43,546 nucleotides of DNA from an uncultured virus (IMG/VR IMGVR_UViG_3300010352_001897) (Duplodnaviria > Heunggongvirae > Uroviricota > Caudoviricetes), in IMG/VR virus record IMGVR_UViG_3300010352_001897; one strand, written 5' to 3'. The position numbers and the translations under genes are program-made. The notes beneath the pieces are model-generated. The model was not told the origin of the DNA, made no database searches, and saw nothing but the letters and a program-made list of their open reading frames with translations. Position 1 is the stretch's first letter; every line of letters begins with the position of its first letter. Positions 9,915-43,546 of this stretch are shown piece after piece.

Positions 9915-10217
9915 TTATATCTTATATTTTTGCTTAAACTTATTTGGCCTGTCAGTAGGCACTTCTTTATTGTTATTTGCGTTTGACATAATTGGGACGA
10001 CTGGTTCCTTAAAAACCCTTTGAGCTAACTCATCCATTAGGTCAACATGATCTTCATTAAACTCTTGGGTATTGTAGTATTTTTTAATGGCTCGAATAAT
10101 GTCATCGTAAATATTCATTTCATCTGAAGATGAATTAATACTTAAGAATATAGAAAAAACCTCATCAGCAGTTGATGAGGTTTTGTTTGAATTAGGTTTT
10201 AATTTAAAATAACTCAT
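9915..10217 (-). CDS. Hypothetical protein
   Basis: 100-aa ORF coupled to the upstream gene by ATGA overlap. Confidence 0.6.
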   Translation of the reverse strand: MSYFKLKPNSNKTSSTADEVFSIFLSINSSSDEMNIYDDIIRAIKKYYNTQEFNEDHVDLMDELAQRVFKEPVVPIMSNANNNKEVPTDRPNKFKQKYKI

Positions 10218-12550
10218 GTTACCTTAAATTTCATTTCCTTTTCAATAGTCATTGCAATTTTATCTTCAGATTCAGCTTCAAATATTTCTGAAGTATATAT
10301 TGCCCTACCGTTGATGATAGGAATGAACTCAGTTCTAAATTGTTCAAGTCCATCTTCTTCATACCAGACTACACCAACACCCTGTTGCCAGTTTTGAAGA
10401 TGTTTCATTCCTGGAACAATGCCTGGATCTAGCTTACAGAGACAACCAAAAGATGCGGCAGTGTACATGTGGAAATTATCATAAGCATCCCAAGTTGTCT
10501 TAGTAGCAACTTCATGGCGATGAATATGACCCTGAATAACAGAAACCCTTGCAGACTTCACCAATTCGGAAACTGTTGCTCCTGATTGTCCCTTAGCTAC
10601 TTCACCATGAATACATACAAGATTGCTATTAAGGGCCACCTTACCATTTGGATAGCTATGATATTCAATATCTAAATCATCAAGAGAAAGTAGATTTTGA
10701 ACAGATAGTGCAGAATTACCTTTTAAGTTATTGACACTCTTAAGTCCGGCCACTGACATTGCACGTTCATTTGTTAATTTATTGAGTCTACAATTTCCTG
10801 TTATTGATACTTTATCATTTCTCCTTACAACTAACGTATCATTAGGTACTGTGAAATCCCACACAATTCCTTTATAATTAACCTTACGTATGTGATTTTT
10901 AATTCTATCAATATATGATACTGTATTTTTTGTAAAATTTAATCTATATTGATTTTTTCTATATTCTGAAATTGAACTTCTATATCCGTTAATTGTTAAT
11001 AAATGTTGAACTTGGTCTAATACTTCCTTTATTCCATACAACATTAGCGAATTTGGATGATTTTTGACCCTAGATCCGTCGCCATCTACTAGTGATTGAA
11101 TGAACAGATCAACCTGTCGTTCTGACATTTCATAAGTCCATTCAGGTAACACATATTTTTCATTAATATGTTCATATATTTTTTTTGATTCATCGGAATT
11201 AATGTGTATTTCACATTGAGTACTTATTTGATTTTTTAACAAAACTCCACATATTTCACTAATATTTCTATTCCTTTCAATTAGTCTATATTTTATTTCT
11301 AGTGAATCTAATAGTGTAGTTATTAGGTTGACTTTTTCTTTTCTCTGATAAATAATAATGTTTTTATAATTACCTGTTTTTCTAGTACTACCATCGGTAA
11401 TAATCCATGCAATCAGCTTTATCATGTTATCACAAATATCAACGTCTTGTTTTAAGTTAATTCCTGATGAGTATTGTATTTTTCTACTATTATTCAATTT
11501 AACATCAGAAGCACAGATCATCTCAAAGTTATTAGGACTATTATTATTTGCCCAATACAATCTATGATTAGGAGTTACTAATAGGTCAGTAGATAATGCC
11601 TTTATTTCATACATTTCACCCTCATAATTATATATTTGAGCTTCAATAAATTTTTGAAATTCTATCTCTTTTGTTTTTTTATTGAAAGTTCCAATCTCGG
11701 TGTTATCGTCAACTTCATAATAGTATTTCCAACCGTCCTTAGTTAGAATTTGAGTATCTTCTGAGAAACATTCATGATTTCCTTCCAAATAGTCAATTTT
11801 AGTACTTTCGTTAATACATCTAAACTTACTCAACCACCATGACAATTCAACTAACGAAGCTTGAGTAGTGAAGTACATGTCAGATGGAACTGAATATTTT
11901 AGAGACATCTCAGCAAGATCCAAGTTGTCTCCTAATAGGACAATCCTGTCAGGATCTAGATAATGTGCAATCTGGAGCGCCACGTCCATTGCCTCTCTAT
12001 CATGAATTGAGACTAGAGAACCATTATTAATGTTTCTTCTAAATCCACACTGCATGTCAGGCAAAATCAATGCACATTTTAGATTTCCATTTCCTCTAAG
12101 TTTCCTTGGAGGATTTGCTGATAAGTTTACTTGAATCTTCGAAGGAAGTTGAAGTTCAATATTTACAACTTTTTTAACAATGTTTATTTTGGTTTGATGG
12201 TGAGTTACTCCTGCACTATCGTCCCAAGTATTGGAATTAACACTAGTAACTTCCCATTCATTAGGTGAATATCCGTTTTTATTTAAAAGCTGTTCAACTG
12301 TATATTCTACAGTTGAAGTATTATTGATAGTTTTTACACTATCTTCACTTTTAATTTCATTGTTATATTGTACCTTCATCTTAGGTTTTTCCTCAATATC
12401 AGGTATAGTAGTGATTGTTTTGGCTATTTCTGCTATTCTACGGCTATCTATAGAATATCTTGCAGAAATCTCTTTTAGAGACATTCCCGACAAATAATCT
12501 TTCTTAATTTTTTCCCTTATCTCTTCGGTATATTTTCTAAACTTTGGCAT
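10214..12550 (-). CDS. Calcineurin-like metallophosphoesterase with N-terminal HTH, intein-containing
   Basis: N-terminal HTH (YLSGMSLKEISARYSI); LPDMQ, GDNLD, GNHE, IHG and QGHIH motifs; intein immediately after GNHE. Confidence 0.85.
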   Translation of the reverse strand: MPKFRKYTEEIREKIKKDYLSGMSLKEISARYSIDSRRIAEIAKTITTIPDIEEKPKMKVQYNNEIKSEDSVKTINNTSTVEYTVEQLLNKNGYSPNEWEVTSVNSNTWDDSAGVTHHQTKINIVKKVVNIELQLPSKIQVNLSANPPRKLRGNGNLKCALILPDMQCGFRRNINNGSLVSIHDREAMDVALQIAHYLDPDRIVLLGDNLDLAEMSLKYSVPSDMYFTTQASLVELSWWLSKFRCINESTKIDYLEGNHECFSEDTQILTKDGWKYYYEVDDNTEIGTFNKKTKEIEFQKFIEAQIYNYEGEMYEIKALSTDLLVTPNHRLYWANNNSPNNFEMICASDVKLNNSRKIQYSSGINLKQDVDICDNMIKLIAWIITDGSTRKTGNYKNIIIYQRKEKVNLITTLLDSLEIKYRLIERNRNISEICGVLLKNQISTQCEIHINSDESKKIYEHINEKYVLPEWTYEMSERQVDLFIQSLVDGDGSRVKNHPNSLMLYGIKEVLDQVQHLLTINGYRSSISEYRKNQYRLNFTKNTVSYIDRIKNHIRKVNYKGIVWDFTVPNDTLVVRRNDKVSITGNCRLNKLTNERAMSVAGLKSVNNLKGNSALSVQNLLSLDDLDIEYHSYPNGKVALNSNLVCIHGEVAKGQSGATVSELVKSARVSVIQGHIHRHEVATKTTWDAYDNFHMYTAASFGCLCKLDPGIVPGMKHLQNWQQGVGVVWYEEDGLEQFRTEFIPIINGRAIYTSEIFEAESEDKIAMTIEKEMKFKVT
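10793..11770 (-). mobile_element. Intein (~326 aa) with LAGLIDADG endonuclease
   Basis: CFSEDTQILTKDGWK (block A), VTPNHRLY (block B), IAWIITDGS and QSLVDGDGS, VWDFTVPNDTLVVRRNDKVSITGN followed by Cys+1. Confidence 0.92.
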
Positions 12551-12620
12551 TAGAACCCCATTTTACTTACTATTTATCGACTATCCCCCTAATGTTAACA
12601 CTAAAACTCCCTGGAAATTT

Positions 12621-12629
12621 TGTTATAGT
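12621..12629 (+). promoter_or_regulatory. Extended -10-like element (TGnTATAGT) upstream of the putative structured RNA
   Basis: AATTTTGTTATAGT; a near-identical AATTTTGTTATACT lies at ~22230-22243 upstream of ORF 22263. Confidence 0.5.
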
Positions 12630-12636
12630 TGGTAAT

Positions 12637-12945
12637 GTTGAGGTTGAAATCTCAGCGGGAGCCTAAGTGGTACAGAGATCCGTCACTGAGTAACAGGTGG
12701 AGGAGAGGATAGGGTGGGAGAGAAATTCCATTTGAGTCCTTTTCGCAGGAAGACTGGCCTTAGGCGTATGAAATGAGCTAGAAAAACTCTAGCTAACTAA
12801 GAGCTTCAATTACGCTAATTTTGTTAAATTGAAGAAAAGTGTACATTTCATAGGGAACTGGTTAACTATTACCAAGGTTTTAGTTAAATCGCTCACTTCT
12901 TACACTTTCATCATTTATTGGTGAGGGGGGTAAGGGGGGAGTGCG
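12637..12945 (+). ncRNA. Putative highly structured non-coding RNA of unassigned family (possible replication primer)
   Basis: Nested stems: 12637-43/12650-56, 12661-67/12759-65, 12712-19/12726-33, 12735-43/12747-55, 12767-75/12844-52, 12776-82/12788-94, 12804-11/12827-34, and a long G.U-rich stem at 12890-12945. No ORF covers the region. Confidence 0.6.
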
Positions 12946-12960
12946 CCGAAACTTAAAGAT

Positions 12961-13008
12961 AATCATATAAACAATCATTTAAATGATCATTTAAATAATC
13001 ATAAAAAC
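12961..13008. repeat. Four tandem 12-bp AT-rich repeats (consensus AATCATTTAAAT)
   Basis: aatcatataaac / aatcatttaaat / gatcatttaaat / aatcataaaaac; includes the palindrome ATCATTTAAATGAT. Confidence 0.8.
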
Positions 13009-13115
13009 ACTAAAGATACTTGAATAGATATTATGTATAGATAATCATTAAATTATAAAAACTATAGATATATCTATACAATTGAAGAAATTAACGTTAA
13101 AAATCTTAAAATTGG

Positions 13116-13619
13116 GTGTTTAAATATTCAGTGGAAATGAAGGAACATATGGACAATCTTACGGATAAAGACTATGAAAACATTCTTGATGAGCATTTTA
13201 ATCTAACCAAGTTAGTTGAAATGTATGAAAATGACACTAAATTAGTACTTAATTATGACAGGCTAGTAAGTGCAAATTTGGATACTCCATCATTAGTTGG
13301 AAAATATGCAAAATTTCAAGCAATGGTTACTAATAGAGTAGCTGATCTTAAGGATGAATTGAAGAAAATAGAGACTGAAATAAGAGTCGCTTATAGAAAA
13401 GAAATAGCAAATCATAGAGTTGAAGTAAAGGGTGAAGTTGAAGATAGAATAGCTTTGGATAAAAGAACTCTTGATACTTTAAGTAAACTTCGTAAAAATG
13501 AAGCTAAGAAGCAATTACTTGATAACTATGTATATTCATTAGTTAGAAATAGAGATCATAATATTAGAAATCATATTGAATTTATGAAATTTAAAGATAA
13601 GACCTATTGGGACAGTTAA
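13116..13619 (+). CDS. uvsY: Recombination mediator UvsY-like protein (start could be ATG 13137)
   Basis: Helical protein ending RDHNIRNHIEFMKF, like the UvsY C-terminal R.F.IKNAIE..KF motif; adjacent to uvsW. Confidence 0.75.
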   Translation: MFKYSVEMKEHMDNLTDKDYENILDEHFNLTKLVEMYENDTKLVLNYDRLVSANLDTPSLVGKYAKFQAMVTNRVADLKDELKKIETEIRVAYRKEIANHRVEVKGEVEDRIALDKRTLDTLSKLRKNEAKKQLLDNYVYSLVRNRDHNIRNHIEFMKFKDKTYWDS

Positions 13620-13644: not shown

Positions 13645-13668
13645 AGCCACATAAATAATTATGTGGCT
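13645..13668 (+). promoter_or_regulatory. Late promoter ATAAATA inside a 10-bp hairpin that sequesters the uvsW start codon
   Basis: AGCCACATAA-ATAA-TTATGTGGCT perfect inverted repeat; GTG start at 13663 lies in the 3' arm. Confidence 0.7.
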
Positions 13669-15294
13669 GTTCTTATTGATAAAATAGATAATTCATACGC
13701 TAGAATCGTATGGCAAGGTAGAGATCCAAGTGAATCTACCTATGCAAATCCTTTATCATTTTTGGATGGAAATTATGCCATACATACTCCAAATTATATG
13801 TTTGACGCCAGATATAAGAATAGGAAATTTACAAGATATGATGGAAAGATCCATCTATTTAAAAAGGAAATTGGAGCACTTCCAATTGGACTTATAAGCG
13901 AAGCGATTAGAATATTAAGTCTAAACGGTTTCAATGTAAAGATTACCGATAAGCTTAATGATCATTTAAATAAAAATCAATATGATGAATCTTCAATAGA
14001 CAGGTTTATTGAAGATTTCACCAATCGTAAATTTAAGCCTCACTTTTTCCAAATTGAAGCTTTAAAAAGTGCCATTAAGAATAAGAGAATATTGTTTGAA
14101 TCTCCAACAGGTTCTGGTAAGAGTTTAATAATTTACCTATTAGTTAGATATGTTCTATGGTTAAATAAAAATAGTAATTTCAGAATGTTAATTATGGTAC
14201 CAAGTATTACGCTAGCAGGTCAAATCTTTAGGGATTTTAAAATTGATTATGGTTGGACTTCATTAGATGATAAGGTTGGTATATATCATTCAGACGGATT
14301 GAGTGAAGAGTATTTGGCTGAAACTCTTCAAAAGCAAGTAATGATTAGTACTTATCAATCGGTTGATAGACTAATGAAAAAAGATCCAAGATTTAATCAT
14401 AAGTTTGATTTTGTGTTATTAGATGAAGCACATAAAGCTAAAAATGAAACTAAAGTCATAGTTAAACTATTAAATGCTTGTATAAATGCTGAATATAGAT
14501 TTGGATTGACAGGAACCATTCCAAAAAATTCTTTGTTTGAAAAAACATTAGAAGGATGTTTTGGAGTGAAAGAAATTCTTGTTGAAACTAAAGATCTTCA
14601 AGATTTAGGAATTCTAAGCAAGTGTAAAGTAGTTAAGGTTGAAATTCCATACACGCTGGCTTCAATAAAGTTTATTAAGACAAATAAGGTAAAATATGAA
14701 GATGAAGTTAATTTGGTCAGACTTAATAGGTCAAAATTATACGCCATTACTAAAATAATAAGATCTGGAAGAATTACCCCTGATCAAAATAGTTTAATAC
14801 TTTGCAATAATGTTGAAAATGGTGAATTGGACGATATTGCCAACCATTTGAGAAAATATCATCCAGAGTTTGAGGTTGAAATAATTCACGGTAAGATAAA
14901 ATCAAAGAAAAAAGATGAAATAATTGGATCAATGGAAACTCGACAAGGTGTGATTATTGTAGCCACATATGCCACCATGTCAACAGGAGTGAATATCAAA
15001 AACTTACATAATGGAATTCTTGCATCTAGTCTTAAGGCATACGAAACCATCATCCAAACCATGGGTAGATTACTTAGAAAACATTCTTCAAAGGCTGAAG
15101 CTGTACTGTATGATTTGGTTGATGATATCCAAATTACCATGAGAACTGGAAATATTTGGAGAAGCCATGTAAATGGTCATTGGGAAGAGCGCAATGAATA
15201 TTACATAGAAAAAGGCTTTCCAATTGAGTATGTGAGACTGGAGAAGGAATTTGATATCCTAAATACCATAAGTGAACTATCCAAATCTAACTGA
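13663..15294 (+). CDS. uvsW: UvsW SF2 DNA helicase
   Basis: SPTGSGKS, DEAH, GLTGT, STGVNIKNLH, QTMGRLLR, LYDLVDD; N-terminal DGKIHLF as in T4 UvsW. Confidence 0.95.
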   Translation: MAVLIDKIDNSYARIVWQGRDPSESTYANPLSFLDGNYAIHTPNYMFDARYKNRKFTRYDGKIHLFKKEIGALPIGLISEAIRILSLNGFNVKITDKLNDHLNKNQYDESSIDRFIEDFTNRKFKPHFFQIEALKSAIKNKRILFESPTGSGKSLIIYLLVRYVLWLNKNSNFRMLIMVPSITLAGQIFRDFKIDYGWTSLDDKVGIYHSDGLSEEYLAETLQKQVMISTYQSVDRLMKKDPRFNHKFDFVLLDEAHKAKNETKVIVKLLNACINAEYRFGLTGTIPKNSLFEKTLEGCFGVKEILVETKDLQDLGILSKCKVVKVEIPYTLASIKFIKTNKVKYEDEVNLVRLNRSKLYAITKIIRSGRITPDQNSLILCNNVENGELDDIANHLRKYHPEFEVEIIHGKIKSKKKDEIIGSMETRQGVIIVATYATMSTGVNIKNLHNGILASSLKAYETIIQTMGRLLRKHSSKAEAVLYDLVDDIQITMRTGNIWRSHVNGHWEERNEYYIEKGFPIEYVRLEKEFDILNTISELSKSN

Positions 15295-17577: not shown

Positions 17578-18462
17578 ATGCTAAGACACGTAATTGTTGA
17601 TTTTGGAACCATATCGTATTGGAAACTATTTTCCCTTGTTTCTAAGGGGAAAGGATATGATGGCACAACTAAGAATATCTTTCTAATTCAAGAATCTGAG
17701 AATGAATTTCCTAATTGGTGTAATGTTGTTGATTCTGAAATTGTTAATTTTATAAACAGGTTTGATCCTGACAAATTAACTATTGCCTGCGACGGTCACA
17801 AGTTATGGAGAAGCAAATTCTACCCTAAGTATAAGGAAAATAGAAAGAAACAAAGNNNNNNNNNNNNNNNNNNNNNNNNNNNNNNNNNNNNNNNNNNNNN
17901 NNNNNNNNNNNNNNNNNNNNNNNNNNNNNNNNNNNNNNNNNNNNNNNNNNNNNNNNNNNNNNNNNNNNNNNNNNNNNNNNNNNNNNNNNNNNNNNNNNNN
18001 NNNNNNNNNNNNNNNNNNNNNNNNNNNNNNNNNNNNNNNNNNNNNNNNNNNNNNNNNNNNNNNNNNNNNNNNNNNNNNNNNNNNNNNNNNNNNNNNNNNN
18101 NNNNNNNNNNNNNNNNNNNNNNNNNNNNNNNNNNNNNNNNNNNNNNNNNNNNNNNNNNNNNNNNNNNNNNNNNNNNNNNNNNNNNNNNNNNNNNNNNNNN
18201 NNNNNNNNNNNNNNNNNNNNNNNNNNNNNNNNNNNNNNNNNNNNNNNNNNNNNNNNNNNNNNNNNNNNNNNNNNNNNNNNNNNNNNNNNNNNNNNNNNNN
18301 NNNNNNNNNNNNNNNNNNNNNNNNNNNNNNNNNNNNNNNNNNNNNNNNNNNNNNNNNNNNNNNNNNNNNNNNNNNNNNNNNNNNNNNNNNNNNNNNGATT
18401 TTAGTGCAGATTACTCAACGACCACGATGTTATTCAATAGAAAATTGTTTAAAATGCATTAA
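17578..18462 (+). CDS. rnh: T4-type RNase H / 5'-3' exonuclease, interrupted by an assembly gap (end and frame uncertain)
   Basis: IVDF, IACDGHKLWRSKFYPKYKENRKK, the FEN/RNase H motif WR...YP.YK..R. Confidence 0.8.
   Translation: MLRHVIVDFGTISYWKLFSLVSKGKGYDGTTKNIFLIQESENEFPNWCNVVDSEIVNFINRFDPDKLTIACDGHKLWRSKFYPKYKENRKKQXXXXXXXXXXXXXXXXXXXXXXXXXXXXXXXXXXXXXXXXXXXXXXXXXXXXXXXXXXXXXXXXXXXXXXXXXXXXXXXXXXXXXXXXXXXXXXXXXXXXXXXXXXXXXXXXXXXXXXXXXXXXXXXXXXXXXXXXXXXXXXXXXXXXXXXXXXXXXXXXXXXXXXXXXXXXXXXXXXXXXDFSADYSTTTMLFNRKLFKMH
17856..18396. other. Assembly gap (541 N)
   Basis: Run of N characters. Confidence 1.
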
Positions 18463-22231: not shown

Positions 22232-22262
22232 TTTTGTTATACTTCAGTTAGGAGATTAAAGA

Positions 22263-26659: not shown

Positions 26660-26749
26660 GAAGAATATTGCAACTCCGCCTTGACAGTTTTTCTTAATTT
26701 TTTTACTTTATTTTTATTCAAATGTTGTTTTACTATACTGGAGGAGCCT

Positions 26750-27931
26750 GTGAACAATCCAATGCTTGACACTGATTTGTATATATTCACGATGGGAATT
26801 TTTGCAAAATATAGACATCAAAATATTATTGCAGAATATGTTTTTAAGTGTAGAAATAATGTTGATCTTACTAACATCACTGACACATTGATAAAAGAAA
26901 TTAAAACATTTATTAATAATGCGAGATTTACAAATGAACAAATTGATTATTTAAATTCTATTTTAGAAAATAGAGCTGAATATCTTAGGGAATATGTAAA
27001 TAATCCGCTTCCTATTAATTTTAATGACTTTGTTATTTATAGTAAAAATCATGAACTTATTGTTAGAGCTAAGGGACCATTGTGGGCTTATATTTTTATT
27101 GAAGTGCCACTTCTATATAAAGTTAATGAACTATATAATAATTACAAGTACAACACTATTAATATTGATGAACTATATAATGGCGCAGAAATTAAGCTTG
27201 ATGAGAAAATCAAACTATTGAACAAAAATCCAGGCGTTAAAATTATGGAATTTGGGACACGTCGTAGGTTCTCTAAGGAGTGGCAAAAGCATGTATTATT
27301 GAGACTTCTTAATGAGACGAATAATATTGTTGGTACTTCAAACGTTGAACTTGCGAAGGAGTTTGGAATCTCTCCGTTAGGCACTACTGCCCACCTATAT
27401 AGTCAAGTTTATCAAGCATTAACTCACCCTCTTGATGCTCAGAAACTTTTCTTTAAGGAATGGTCTGAATTCTGGGGTGATAAATTTCTTATTGCCCTTA
27501 CTGATATTTTTCCACAACAGAAATTTTTGAAAGATTTCAACAAAGAACTTGCTAATAAGTATCAAGGTGTTCGACATGATAGTGGAGATCCTAAAATCTG
27601 GTGTCGCGAAATCATTGAACATTACAAATCTAACGAAATAGACCCTAAAACAAAAACTGCAATTTTTAGCGACGGCCTTGACATTCCTATGTGTATTGAT
27701 CTATATAATGAATTTCACGATAAAATTAATGTAATTTTTGGAGTAGGGACTAATCTGACAAATGACATGGGAATGGGGCATCAAGCTCTCCAGATTGTCA
27801 TGAAAGTTGTTGAAATTAACGGAAGAGCAGTCGCCAAGCTTTCCAATAACCCAGGAAAAACTATGTGTGAAAATATGCACTATGTTCAGTGGTTAACTCA
27901 GGCCATTCAGGAGGATGTAAATAATGGCTAA
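26750..27931 (+). CDS. pncB: Nicotinate phosphoribosyltransferase (GTG 26750 likely start)
   Basis: LDTDLY, EFGTRRRFS, GTSNV.LA, GTTAH, RHDSGDP, FSDGL, FGVGTNLTND, KLS..PGK; GGAGG 5 nt upstream of the GTG. Confidence 0.9.
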   Translation: MNNPMLDTDLYIFTMGIFAKYRHQNIIAEYVFKCRNNVDLTNITDTLIKEIKTFINNARFTNEQIDYLNSILENRAEYLREYVNNPLPINFNDFVIYSKNHELIVRAKGPLWAYIFIEVPLLYKVNELYNNYKYNTINIDELYNGAEIKLDEKIKLLNKNPGVKIMEFGTRRRFSKEWQKHVLLRLLNETNNIVGTSNVELAKEFGISPLGTTAHLYSQVYQALTHPLDAQKLFFKEWSEFWGDKFLIALTDIFPQQKFLKDFNKELANKYQGVRHDSGDPKIWCREIIEHYKSNEIDPKTKTAIFSDGLDIPMCIDLYNEFHDKINVIFGVGTNLTNDMGMGHQALQIVMKVVEINGRAVAKLSNNPGKTMCENMHYVQWLTQAIQEDVNNG

Positions 27932-28877
27932 TCTAGCCGTAATTGTTGGTCGCTTTCAAGTTCCCTTTCCGACTGAAGCCCACATTGACTTAATCCAACA
28001 CGCCATCGACGTATATGACAATGTGATTATTTTTATTGGACATTCTCCTAAGCCCAATAGACTGAACATTGTTCCACATAACCTTATTAAAGAAACTATT
28101 GAAAAAATATGTCTTCGTAGGGTTTCCAATACTAACAAAAAAGCAATTGTTAGTACAATTCAAGACGTTTATAATCCTCAGGCATGGAGTTATCTCCTTG
28201 ACGCTAAGATCCTAGAGTTATGTGTTCAAAATAACATCTCCTGCAATAATGCAGTTGCCCTTGGTGGGAGAGATAGTTTTGTATTCTCGTATAAGGGGAA
28301 ATTGTTGACCCCTGAAATATATAGATCTCATCTAGGTGATGAAATGAGCGCCTCGCAAATAAGGAAGGAAATTCTTAATAAAGGTCCAAGAAATACTCCT
28401 GAATTTATTAGTGGTATGATATATCAGAGGCTTTCCCAATATCCAACGGCTTTCCAAACTGTCGATATTGCCATTGAAAATAATGGACATTATCTACTTG
28501 GACATCGTGAAGGTATTAGTAAGTATAGGTTTATTGGAGGTTTTTCTGATCCAGAATCTAATAGTTTAGAAGATGATGCCGTCAGGGAGGTCTTTGAAGA
28601 GACTCAACTGGAGGTCACTGACATTAAATACATCAAGTCAACAAAAATTAATGATGTCAGGTATGCCAACACCGGAGATAGCATTAAAACCGCATTCTTC
28701 CATGCATCAACACAGACATTTGGAACTGCCTCGTGTGCCGAACCTGCGACTAAGAATGGGTTTGACGATATGCCATATCTTAGGTGGTTCAGATTTGAAG
28801 ACATTACTGAAAATATGTTAGTTAGCGAACATGTAATTCTTTTCAACATGCTTAAGAAATATAGGGAGACATTGTAA
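27924..28877 (+). CDS. nadM: Bifunctional NMN/NaMN adenylyltransferase - Nudix (ADP-ribose) hydrolase
   Basis: VGRFQVP..TEAH (HxGH-like), SASQIR, TVD, Nudix box GGF.D.....LEDDAVREVFEET.L. Confidence 0.88.
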   Translation: MANLAVIVGRFQVPFPTEAHIDLIQHAIDVYDNVIIFIGHSPKPNRLNIVPHNLIKETIEKICLRRVSNTNKKAIVSTIQDVYNPQAWSYLLDAKILELCVQNNISCNNAVALGGRDSFVFSYKGKLLTPEIYRSHLGDEMSASQIRKEILNKGPRNTPEFISGMIYQRLSQYPTAFQTVDIAIENNGHYLLGHREGISKYRFIGGFSDPESNSLEDDAVREVFEETQLEVTDIKYIKSTKINDVRYANTGDSIKTAFFHASTQTFGTASCAEPATKNGFDDMPYLRWFRFEDITENMLVSEHVILFNMLKKYRETL

Positions 28878-30550
28878 TGAATAAGAAAATTGCAATGGCT
28901 CAGATTGAAGTTAAGACTGGCGACATTAATGGAAATGTCGAACGAGTGTTGTCTAACGTACAGAAGGCATTTGCTGAAAATGCTGACTTTATTCTTTTCC
29001 CAGAAATGACCATTAGTGGATATAATTGTGGCGACTTGTTCGAAAAAGTGGCATTTATTGATGAATGCCAACGTGGACTCATGTCCATTGTTAAGGAGTC
29101 GAACAACTATCCAGACTTGGTTATTATTTTGGGATGTCCTAGATTTCAAAAGAGAAATCTCTATAATTCTGCCTATGTAATTATGAATGGAATTATTATC
29201 GATAGATATGATAAGCAACTTCTTGCCAATGATTATCACCATGAAGATCGGAAATATTTCAAAGCCGGAACCTCCAACAAAACAGTGTATCTGAAAGGTA
29301 TTAAGTTTGGTATTATTATTTGTGAAGACGGGTGGACCGAAAACGGATATGGTAGAGATATCGTTAATGAATTGAACGCTGAACATGTTGATGTGATTTT
29401 TAGTCTTAATTTCAGTTATTTTACGTACAACAAGAAACAAATTCGTGAGAGTTTGTTCAGAAAGAAATATGGATGTCCAATTGTATATGTAAATTGTGTA
29501 GGTGTTGGAGATATCACTAAGAATTTCATTCTGTATGATGGGAATTCTTTCTATACTGAAGGCAACAATAATCTTACATATATGGAGAATGCTGATTTCA
29601 AAGAAGCGTTCCAAGTAATTAATCTTACCCATGCAACCATAGATTCTTTGGCGCACAATGTTCGGCATAATGAACGTGACCATAAGTATTTTGACATTCA
29701 CAGTGCAATTCTATATGCTCAGAAAAATATCTTTAACCAGTGTGGAATGAAAGTCGCACAGGTTCACATTAGCGGAGGAATTGACTCTGCAATTGTAGGG
29801 TATTTTGCCGTGAAGGCTATGGGTAAAGAGAATGTAGTCTTTATTACTCAGCCTTCTAAGAATAATGGACAAGAGACACTCAACAATGCATATCAATTAG
29901 CCAATGCACTGGGAGTTGAACTAATCAGTGATCCGATTGTTGATTATATTCAAATTTATAAGGAAAAAAGCCCTGACTACACTAAGGCTCAGATTGCCTC
30001 TTTTGAAGCAACTCTTAGAAAATCCTTAGGGTTCTCGTACACCCACAAGTATAAGAGTGGAGTTGTTGCCTGTGGGAACCATACTGAAAATGTTCTTGGG
30101 TTCTTTGGGTTTGGTGATATTGGTAGCATGGGAGTGTACCAGCCTATTGGTGATTTGACCAAAGTTGAGCTATATGAACTTGCCAAGTGCATTAATGAAG
30201 AAATTGAACATTGTGAAATTATTCCTAAGAGACTATACAATGGTGAAATGAAACCTGCCGCAGAGCTAGAAGATATTAAGGAAGACCCTTTTGATTATGA
30301 GATTATGAGTGTAATTTGTGAAAAGATTATTAGAGAAGGTGAAACTCCTAAGCAAATATTCAATGAACTCCGTACTGCATTTAGGTACAGTGGATTGAGT
30401 GATGAATATTTGTCTGAAAATATTGATAAGGCGTGGACCTTGAGTAAGAGGAGCGTATACAAGCGAGCACAGTCGGCACCTGTACTTATTTTGAGCAATA
30501 GGAGCATTGGGTTTAGCTCTAGAGAGACGATTATTAATCATTATAAGTAA
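28877..30550 (+). CDS. nadE: Glutamine-dependent NAD+ synthetase
   Basis: Nitrilase domain (GDINGN, FPEM.ISGY, YDK..L, ICED.W) plus synthetase domain (SGGIDSA, GN.TE..LG, GD, PIGDLTK, P.AEL, YKRAQSAP). Confidence 0.93.
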   Translation: MNKKIAMAQIEVKTGDINGNVERVLSNVQKAFAENADFILFPEMTISGYNCGDLFEKVAFIDECQRGLMSIVKESNNYPDLVIILGCPRFQKRNLYNSAYVIMNGIIIDRYDKQLLANDYHHEDRKYFKAGTSNKTVYLKGIKFGIIICEDGWTENGYGRDIVNELNAEHVDVIFSLNFSYFTYNKKQIRESLFRKKYGCPIVYVNCVGVGDITKNFILYDGNSFYTEGNNNLTYMENADFKEAFQVINLTHATIDSLAHNVRHNERDHKYFDIHSAILYAQKNIFNQCGMKVAQVHISGGIDSAIVGYFAVKAMGKENVVFITQPSKNNGQETLNNAYQLANALGVELISDPIVDYIQIYKEKSPDYTKAQIASFEATLRKSLGFSYTHKYKSGVVACGNHTENVLGFFGFGDIGSMGVYQPIGDLTKVELYELAKCINEEIEHCEIIPKRLYNGEMKPAAELEDIKEDPFDYEIMSVICEKIIREGETPKQIFNELRTAFRYSGLSDEYLSENIDKAWTLSKRSVYKRAQSAPVLILSNRSIGFSSRETIINHYK

Positions 30551-42777: not shown

Positions 42778-43020
42778 ATGGAATCTGAATCAAAAGTAAC
42801 AAAGGACCTGTCTTTTGACTTTTATGCAGATTTAGCAATACAGAAGATTCGTGAAGCTAAGAAAATATATGAAGAGGCAATGCACCATACGTCAGTGACT
42901 AGAATCAAAAGATGTCAAAGAAACATTTTAGATTCAAAGTACTTGTTCAAAGAACTTGAGGCTATAGTTTCTGATACTAAGACACATATACTAAACCTAA
43001 GAAAGCAAGATCTATCATGA
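42778..43020 (+). CDS. Hypothetical protein
   Basis: 80-aa ORF in the operon. Confidence 0.55.
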   Translation: MESESKVTKDLSFDFYADLAIQKIREAKKIYEEAMHHTSVTRIKRCQRNILDSKYLFKELEAIVSDTKTHILNLRKQDLS

Positions 43021-43546
43021 GCGTGAGTCACAACGTACTTTTACTAAATCAGGCTGAACAGCCTTTGACAATTCTCTCTTGGAAGAGAGCGTTGACTCTT
43101 ATTTTCTCAAACAAAGCCGACGTAGTGTCTTACAGTGATGTTTGGGTTGATTCTATCTCCAGGAGTTGGAATCTTCCATCCATCATCCGAATGGACAACG
43201 ACGCCGATTTCCACCAGACCATTTATAAGGTCCCTAGGTGTACGAAGAAGCGCATTCACATTCGCGATGGGTACGTCTGTGCCTACTGTGGAAAGAAGTG
43301 TAAGAAGGAACAGTTGACGGTTGACCACATTCATCCTGAAAGCTTGGGTGGTAAGTTGACCTGGATCAACAGCGTAACTTCTTGTAGGCGTTGTAATAAC
43401 AAGAAGGCCAATAAGACTTTGGAAGAGTCTGGAATGGTCTTGTTGCGTAAACCATATATCCCAAGTACAATCTTCGAATTGTTTCTTGAAGAATATGCTA
43501 ACAAGCCTGACTGGAAGAAATATCTTGACGTGAAGAACAAGGGATA
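43017..43546 (+). CDS. HNH endonuclease (McrA/HNH_5-like), runs off the window edge
   Basis: Not in the ORF track; manual translation MSVSHNVLLLNQAEQPL..SWKRA...PSIIR...RDGYVCAYCG...LTVDHIHP.S.GG..TW.N.VTSC..CNNKK. Confidence 0.9.
   Translation, partial: MSVSHNVLLLNQAEQPLTILSWKRALTLIFSNKADVVSYSDVWVDSISRSWNLPSIIRMDNDADFHQTIYKVPRCTKKRIHIRDGYVCAYCGKKCKKEQLTVDHIHPESLGGKLTWINSVTSCRRCNNKKANKTLEESGMVLLRKPYIPSTIFELFLEEYANKPDWKKYLDVKNKG

Follow-up and report, generated by a model that had tools for sequence, protein, structure and literature searches.

In bacteriophage T4, the origin oriF, also known as ori(uvsY), consists of a promoter and an A+T-rich unwinding element, and its transcript forms a persistent R-loop that primes DNA synthesis (PMC3016281; our statements on T4 origins are drawn from excerpts of that review). 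The origin is ~100 bp long, R-loop formation there is independent of specific sequence, UvsW unwinds origin R-loops, and what governs R-loop formation at T4 origins is presented as an open question. In addition, oriE carries evenly spaced 12-nt repeats whose role as iterons is unproven, and oriE, oriF and oriG all lie at strand switches with shifts in compositional bias (PMC3016281). Here we describe a structured RNA of ~310 nt (12637..12947, + strand) that lies at a strand switch beside a uvsY-like gene in DNA from an uncultured, distantly T4-like phage (IMG/VR record IMGVR_UViG_3300010352_001897). The whole stretch analysed, 43,546 nt in length, is called the window, and positions count from its first letter. 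Its folding z-score, its lack of open reading frames (ORFs) and its syntenic, covarying homologues support the segment, and we are highly confident that it is a real conserved structured RNA element. Its function is a more tentative matter: we favour an origin-of-replication transcript resembling those of T4 oriF/oriE or ColE1 RNA II, a statement which, taken as a whole and with the origin role included, we put somewhat below an even chance.

ColE1 RNA II is a long folded transcript made from its own promoter, and its structure and a G-run decide whether a persistent RNA-DNA hybrid forms at the origin. A two-block G-run is also where transcription from the mitochondrial light-strand promoter (LSP) ends early. 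According to the excerpts on which we draw, most promoter-proximal LSP transcripts stop early, and the stable R-loops they form are a source of primers (PMC6317783), and clusters of G on the non-template strand favour R-loop initiation (PMC4083084).

The RNA lies in a 565-nt gap between divergent gene blocks. Large ORFs are all on the - strand to the left of 12550 and nearly all on the + strand to the right of 13116, which agrees with the strand-switch location given in an earlier note made from the sequence alone. The gap has a GC-richer part followed by an AT-rich part: the GC content of 150-nt windows is 0.447–0.480 at 12575-12799, a stretch that is also G-skewed, compared with 0.27–0.33 in the left gene and 0.167 at 12950-13099. 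No ORF of at least 60 aa was found in the RNA segment, merely frames of 31–40 aa, so that 12637-12945 is indeed the ORF-free, GC-richer segment that had been reported. Moreover, six-frame blastp (E <= 0.01) found no peptide common to the intergenic region of the window and five homologous regions. A promoter-like extended -10 element (TTTGT-TATAGT; 12619..12629, + strand), with TATAGT at 12624-12629 after TG-T, stands directly upstream, and the predicted RNA start is 7 nt past it, the distance noticed earlier. The motif TTTTGTTATA.T is found again before the gene at window position 22233 and nine times in a related 212-kb contig, in several cases just past terminator-like hairpins and ahead of a ribosome-binding site (RBS); because it recurs before genes, we took it as a working promoter type in these phages. 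At the 3’ side, the limit of the RNA was set by convention at the end of a GUGCGCC motif.

When folded as a + strand RNA, 12637-12945 has a minimum free energy (MFE) of -102.6 kcal/mol and a z-score of -5.18, with 0 of 100 shuffles as stable. The reverse complement gave z = -1.50, and 7 of 100 shuffles were as stable. The folding test that the earlier note had called for is thus significant on the + strand only, and together with the G.U pairs, which account for 19 of the 104 pairs in the MFE fold, it bears out the proposed selection on a + strand RNA. From 5’ to 3’ the MFE structure starts with an 8-bp hairpin with a UGAA loop (12637..12656), and a 27-nt block containing a small hairpin with a UGAGUAAC loop lies at 12676..12702; this block is identical in a relative (a 64,566-nt contig) whose flanks are less than 80% alike. 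Next comes a junction stem (12702-12710/12736-12744) enclosing a conserved hairpin at 12712-12733 with a GAGAAA loop. It is followed by a three-way junction closed by 12767-12775/12844-12852 and holding the hairpins AGCUAGA and CUUCAAUU (12767..12852), by a hairpin at 12863..12886, and by a 22-bp terminal hairpin (12890..12943) with a CU-rich 5’ arm, a G-rich 3’ arm and a CUUCU/AGGGG base that is kept in all members of the family described below. The three-way junction and the 12863..12886 hairpin are specific to this lineage. The 5’ hairpin, the three-way junction with both inner hairpins, the further hairpin and the long terminal stem had all been drawn in the same way before. The multibranch domain fared less well: its GCCUAAG/CUUAGGC closing stem is present in the MFE fold of 12637-12945 and drops out once the segment is extended 3’ by 5 nt, for which reason we count it as unproven, and instead of the three separate inner hairpins once proposed, the stable parts are two nested helices (12702-12710/12736-12744 and 12712-12719/12726-12733).

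Related RNAs were found at six further loci, L001, L002, L005, L138, L141 and L140, all in uncultured T4-like phages. They amount to five distinct sequences, the L141 RNA being identical to that of L138; another locus, L004, is the same phage as the window (99.9% identical). L005, which was also recovered as L115, lies on a contig of 212,780 nt and has a UvsW 55% identical to the window’s, the corresponding values being 40% for L001 and 37% for L002. L138, L141 and L140 were added by a motif scan, and L140 is part of a complete 306,252-nt genome with terminal repeats. UvsW relatives in ENA/Logan assemblies (P0002–P0014) are 76–53% identical (P0003, 73%). In all members the gene order is constant: a helix-turn-helix (HTH)-phosphoesterase gene on one strand, the RNA, and then uvsY and uvsW on the other. 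CheckV put completeness at 14% for contigs of 44–49 kb and at 26% for 80 kb, from which genomes of ~300 kb can be extrapolated for that branch.

L001 and L002 are ~88% identical across the RNA; none of 57 pairs is broken between them, two are changed on both sides and six on one side. A covariance model built from these two sequences alone (R1) finds L005 at the syntenic site (E 4.7e-06), L140 (E 3.8e-50) and L138/L141 (E 1.8e-47). It makes a single match per record in five records and no other match in 694,647 nt, which include 80 other, general T4-like UvsW loci and the whole 212-kb contig. When the five distinct sequences are aligned, pairing holds in 94.6% of cells, and both sides have changed in 28 of the 57 pairs; slid controls give 2–4 such pairs, and 0 of 500 shuffles do as well. 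Fitting this alignment to the model favours structure; the slid controls carry the same bias and still fall far below. MAFFT alignments of the terminal hairpin and the junction were structurally inconsistent and were left out of the pair counts. Upstream of the R1 core, L140, L138, L001, L002 and L005 have in common an extra 5’ domain of 15 pairs, seven of them compensatory, which forms a 9-bp stem around two small hairpins, one with a GAUGA loop. The full-length RNA measures ~300–330 nt in every lineage. Folding z-scores are uneven among members (-3.59 for the L001 core, -2.79 for L005, -1.76 for L002 and -0.81 for full-length L140, where 19 of 100 shuffles are as good), and so the case for the family rests on covariation and not on folding energy. 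The homologous regions upstream of uvsY that the earlier note had suggested gathering therefore exist and covary. We conclude that the RNA is a new family, present in single copy and always at the same place across a clade of uncultured T4-like phages.

Within this family, the window copy is the most divergent member. It is tied to the others by synteny, common motifs and weak covariance-model matches, none of significant score. Its promoter motif is the same as that of L005. Among four sequences, ten columns of the 12702..12744 part are invariant, the GG..GAGA.A..CC positions of the hairpin at 12712-12733 do not vary, and the pair next to GG/CC is U-A, A-U, G.U or G-C. The two-tier terminal hairpin, with its CUUCU/AGGGG base and an internal loop on the 3’ side, is also common to the window and its relatives. 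When a model (R2) was built from the window’s terminal hairpin alone and run against 45 kb, its best match was the same hairpin in L001 (E 0.055–0.071), its second L138 (E 0.72) and its fifth L002, so that 3 of 6 matches fall on this hairpin in relatives. Two parts differ: the window has the three-way junction and an extra hairpin where relatives have one variable hairpin of 33–42 nt, and the small second hairpin of the relatives’ junction is absent from it. Finally, a near-identical strain shows 11 differences in 12448-13256. Of the ten that are listed, six precede the RNA (over 189 nt), one lies within it (309 nt) and three follow it (over 311 nt); the sole substitution in the RNA, 12741 T>C, turns a G.U into a G-C pair in the stem 12702-12710/12736-12744.

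The RNA is followed by a distinctive stretch of DNA. Its 3’ end lies in G-runs in the five lineages checked, and in the window two G6 runs (12925-12930 and 12934-12939, 3 nt apart), out of only three in the 43.5 kb, fall in the 3’ arm of the terminal hairpin. The best tandem repeat of the locus begins within ~15 nt of the RNA end in 5 of 5 lineages checked. In the window it lies at 12959..13009, with a 12-nt unit in 4.1 copies and a Tandem Repeats Finder (TRF) score of 56, the highest of 26 rows; 7 of the 21 matches to the repeat motif in the window fall within 12959-13059. The counterparts are an 8-nt unit in L140 (4.1 copies, score 66), a 9-nt unit in L138 (2.4 copies, score 44), a 21-nt unit in L001 (3.1 copies, score 68) and a 122-nt unit in L005 (2 copies, no TRF score), and L002 has dispersed short repeats only. 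The repeats sit within an AT-rich spacer (12947..13115), where the 150-nt window from 12961 has a GC content of 0.16, the lowest of the window outside an N run; taken as RNA, the spacer has a z-score of -1.59. In the 212-kb contig the homologous spacer has the lowest GC content of 21,264 windows, and the locus is the sole divergent intergenic region of at least 200 nt. The locus is also a local minimum of cumulative GC skew in the 212-kb and 306-kb contigs. No intrinsic terminator was found after the RNA or between it and uvsY, and on the - strand close to the RNA, promoter-like sites occur only at 12598-12569, a position suited to the left gene, and at 13059-13030, past the RNA in the spacer. 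The locus is a composite module of which the RNA is one half: a promoter, a folded RNA ending in G-runs, short tandem repeats specific to each lineage, and an AT-rich spacer.

We favour an origin transcript because this module has all the sequence-level features of such an origin plus a conserved folded RNA. In the proposed mechanism, a sigma-70-type extended -10 promoter of its own would drive the RNA, whose G-rich 3’ end would stay paired with the C-rich template at the edge of easily melted AT-rich DNA, giving an R-loop. The conserved fold would govern whether the RNA-DNA hybrid forms, as in ColE1 RNA II, and the tandem repeats would bind an initiator or regulator, for which the HTH-phosphoesterase is a candidate. 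The fold, its conservation, the synteny, the single copy, the G-runs, the repeats and the AT-rich spacer can be read off the sequences directly; the limits of transcription, the R-loop, the priming step and any protein partner are putative.

Compared with T4 oriF, the window likewise has a promoter directed into an A+T-rich element, a likeness of sequence features only, and the locus likewise adjoins uvsY, a strand switch and a shift in compositional bias (the skew minima being local), with the UvsW gene near. Unlike oriF, it has a covarying RNA of ~310 nt and two G6 runs between the promoter and the AT-rich DNA, and its R-loop is only putative. With oriE the window has in common evenly spaced direct repeats of a 12-nt period behind a sigma-70-type extended -10 element, and repeats that abut the RNA in L140, L138, L001 and L005 too recall oriE and iterons; the repeat unit here, in contrast, varies by lineage (8, 9, 12, 21 or 122 nt). 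A likeness to ColE1 RNA II would lie in the folded RNA with its own predicted promoter and G-runs, beside DNA that is only a putative origin, but there is no sequence or Rfam relation, this is a phage and not a plasmid, and no counterpart of the antisense RNA I is evident in the window, where the - strand z-score is the -1.50 given above. The G6-N3-G6 arrangement at the RNA 3’ end resembles the mitochondrial LSP by analogy only: there the domain of life and the polymerase are different, and the window’s G-runs are paired in a conserved RNA hairpin.

A bolder version of this reading would make the RNA the phage counterpart of ColE1 RNA II. A folded pre-primer RNA of ~300 nt would license origin firing, the CU/G terminal hairpin being the off state and the G-run R-loop, formed on the template where the AT-rich repeat DNA begins, the on state; which state prevails would be determined by the repeats and the HTH-phosphoesterase, with UvsW removing the R-loop at a later stage of infection. 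In this specific form we regard the proposal as unlikely. Were it true, a virus would be seen to use a primer RNA that is both structured and regulated, and R-loop formation at T4-type origins would have a concrete rule. Under the more general reading as an origin transcript, no folded and conserved primer or R-loop RNA would have preceded it at a T4-type origin, and it would link T4 oriF/oriE, ColE1 RNA II and mitochondrial R-loop priming, which are usually treated separately. The question about R-loop formation raised in the excerpted T4 review (PMC3016281) would then become testable with a defined sequence. Whichever version applies, a multi-domain RNA of ~300 nt supported by covariation joins the short list of large structured phage RNAs. 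In addition, it points to a likely origin in large uncultured phages, a group without any known origin to our knowledge.

Several observations weigh against an origin transcript of this kind. T4 oriF needs no folded RNA, and RNA caught in an R-loop has no fold. In the conserved terminal hairpin the G-runs are paired with the CU arm of the RNA itself, a pairing that would compete with the hybrid. The repeats, which are different from lineage to lineage, could serve the uvsY promoter as operators, and no antisense regulator is evident. The AT-rich spacer is not uniformly extreme, since that of the 306-kb genome ranks only 740th of 30,611 windows for AT content and that of L001 is not the lowest-GC of its locus. 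Similarly, the skew minimum is only local, since both whole contigs have their global minima at other positions, and gene orientation alone may account for it. As for the RNA itself, the thermodynamic signal is not general, with L140 and L002 both weak. R1 misses the window at significance (the terminal hairpin scores E 4.3, tenth of 25 matches), and R2 misses L005 and L140, its top match reaching only the E-value given above.

Evidence for transcription is likewise a weak hint. Contigs of two metatranscriptome runs, both from one study, cover 12714-12923 and 12946-13125 (run 1) and 12721-12883 and 12936-13097 (run 2). Contig depth is 2–13 and the contigs carry no strand or end information, while a low-depth DNA run has a similar isolated contig, 12673-12988; for these reasons we give the hint little weight. 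No RNA-run contig covers the uvsY body, a gap which at this depth is not evidence of absence. In both runs the contigs break at the G-runs, through which the DNA contig continues.

This last observation bears on the strongest alternative, in which the RNA is free-standing and acts in trans, being released from the primary transcript near the G-runs so as to scaffold a protein of the phage or its host, or to act as a decoy for it, while the repeats are unrelated promoter or operator DNA of uvsY. The breaks (12883/12923 versus 12936/12946) would fit such a release, as would the RNA’s own promoter; they may equally be a sequencing artefact of the G-runs, both runs coming from one study, and no terminator follows. 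Compensatory changes have preserved eight or nine helices, and the sequence itself is invariant in the GAGAAA-type loop, in the GAUGA loop and in the 27-nt block 12676-12702, a combination typical of RNAs with protein or tertiary contacts, and in the near-identical strain the RNA region is more conserved than its flanks. On the other hand, the RNA has no similarity to any RNA described in Rfam, and a trans-acting role leaves unexplained why a repeat array abuts the RNA 3’ end in 5 of 5 lineages. We consider this alternative possible, if on the unlikely side; if it holds, the invariant loops point to a protein partner. One specific form of it, a CsrB/RsmZ-type sponge for CsrA, was rejected: each RNA has 7–9 GGA motifs compared with 6.2–7.1 in shuffles, and a fraction of 0.24–0.58 of shuffles reach the observed count.

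The RNA might instead be a cis-acting 5’ leader of the uvsY-uvsW unit, either a processive antitermination element (put- or EAR-like) heading the long block of rightward genes or a regulatory leader for uvsY. It lies directly behind a promoter and points the same way as uvsY-uvsW and almost every gene to the right, its place beside uvsY is conserved, and the missing terminator between RNA and uvsY would be expected of a leader. However, 170–300 nt of AT-rich repeat DNA separate the RNA from the start codon, no expression platform overlaps the RBS, and the RNA-run contigs stop at 13097-13125 with none over the uvsY body, a weak point at this low depth. At ~310 nt the RNA is also far larger than the antitermination RNAs known to us. 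We regard a leader as quite improbable. Least likely by far is a DNA-level element only (protein-binding palindromes or a mobile-element or intron remnant) with an incidental RNA fold: divergent promoters and repeats crowd this control region, and mobile elements are near (the intein of the left gene, and an HNH gene where the window ends), but the fold is strand-specific and contains G.U pairs, its pairing survives G-C/G.U/A-U exchanges of a kind not tolerated in DNA palindromes, and there is a single copy per genome, no conserved peptide and no match to an intron family.

To relate the RNA to described families, we used the 4227 models of Rfam 15, which include RNase P, tmRNA, 6S, group I and II introns, GOLLD, ROOL, HEARO, riboswitches and ribozymes. 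Only noise was returned in 12400-13250 (best E 2.4 at 15 bits versus a threshold of 85), no family reached its gathering score anywhere in the window, and the RNAs of L140, L138, L001 and L005 had no Rfam match. ARAGORN found 0 tRNA or tmRNA genes in the window. A group I or II intron is further disfavoured by the position of the RNA between genes with intact starts, and no intron model of Rfam matches in the window or the four homologous loci. The earlier failure to identify the RNA with tRNA, tmRNA, RNase P or group I/II introns is thereby upheld. GOLLD, ROOL and HEARO, which are themselves Rfam models, are likewise large, multi-domain, phage-borne and GC-richer than their surroundings, but the RNA described here is smaller, is confined to one locus of one phage clade and matches none of these models. 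Because Rfam and ARAGORN are negative, the z-score is significant on the + strand and the pairs covary, both the selection on a + strand RNA and the lack of a described family stand. The description as a novel phage non-coding RNA is accordingly right as far as family and strand go, with the qualification that the RNA may act in cis at a replication origin.

Further sequence searches gave little. BLASTN against 50,697 phage records returned no match for the window’s intergenic region, the L001 RNA or the L005 RNA, and neither a scan of IMG/VR with UvsW alone nor a search with an exact 26-nt pattern gave a match. A scan of JGI metagenomes recovered the same phage (L004) and L005 only, and a scan of GTDB recovered L115 only, that is, L005. 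A pattern combining a G-run with GTGCGCC hit 22 loci, of which two are the L001 and L002 contigs and the others are GC-rich coding DNA or unrelated intergenic G-runs. Two of these contigs, L091 and L105, come from unrelated phages and have G5-6/G6 runs followed by GTGCGCC in intergenic DNA beside terminase genes; neither matches R1, and the motifs there may be packaging-site motifs. Three extra loci found with a GTACTTCT/G-run pattern were all coding. L103, a locus of the G-run/GTGCGCC pattern that has a 12-nt string in common with the window promoter, and eight other loci of that pattern have no R1 match and were treated as chance. Among the 80 general T4-like UvsW loci, L009:374-648 is the only GC-elevated intergenic gap (0.44 versus 0.31), and it has no R1 match. 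In the literature, titles and the openings of abstracts contain no description of this RNA that we could find.

Two further candidates were discarded. A short ORF starting from the GUG of GUGCGCC has 9 codons in the window and L001 and 14 in L002; we dropped it because it is absent in L005 and its spacing to the Shine-Dalgarno-like G-run is 1–2 nt. In addition, a 119-nt ‘skip’ joint in a relative’s contig was judged an alignment artefact, the relative spanning 671 nt compared with 689 in the window.

The phage that carries the RNA encodes a DNA polymerase, SbcC/SbcD, a gp55-type late sigma factor, UvsY, UvsW, a ribonucleotide reductase and a clamp loader, and its closest UvsW match among the 50,697 phage records is only 34% identical. 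The uvsY-like gene (13116..13619, + strand; PHROG 231, E 7.8e-07) is listed from a GTG at 13116, the true start being more likely the ATG at 13150 behind AAGGAA. Its homologue in L140 scores 22.9 bits on Pfam UvsY, just above the cut-off of 22.8. The UvsW-type helicase gene follows at 13663..15294 on the + strand. On the other side of the RNA, the divergent gene (10214..12550, - strand) encodes 778 aa with an N-terminal HTH and a calcineurin-like phosphoesterase, interrupted by a LAGLIDADG-type intein (Pfam LAGLIDADG_3 at residues 480-537). Homologues without the intein in L005, L140 and L138 have 447–461 aa, with sub-threshold HTH and Metallophos_2 matches. As listed, the ORF has 824 aa in L001 and 534 aa in L002, and both starts extend into the RNA region; these two ORFs are probably too long. 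An HNH endonuclease gene lies at 43017-43544 (+ strand) and runs past the end of the window, and given this gene and the intein, we consider mobile elements to be active in this genome.

Elsewhere in the window, an N run of 541 bases (17856-18396) falls within a region of + strand ORFs. Three neighbouring genes at 26681-30550 (+ strand) match nicotinamide phosphoribosyltransferase, a cytidylyltransferase/NUDIX fusion and NAD synthetase in PHROGs, and from these matches the group looks like a phage cassette for NAD+ salvage or rebuilding. Such cassettes are discussed as a counter to host defences that deplete NAD.

Finally, the 212,780-nt contig identical to L005 (L115, or G001:C18), a T4-like phage contig, is filed in a metagenome-assembled genome (MAG) titled Candidatus Omnitrophota, a placement that reflects a binning error or else hints at the host. 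The promoter of L005 has a 17-nt exact repeat elsewhere in this contig, and contig C172 of the same MAG has the same 17-nt string. At 188600 and 205570 (+ strand) of G001:C18, ~17 kb apart, are two copies of ~70 nt comprising the promoter motif and its flanks, with 1 difference in 72 printed nt. Between 142 and 162 kb the contig has 11 clustered ORF-free gaps of 200–811 nt, which may be tRNA or other RNA genes; in 9 of the 11 the richest 150 nt have a GC content of 0.37–0.51, compared with 29% for the genome.

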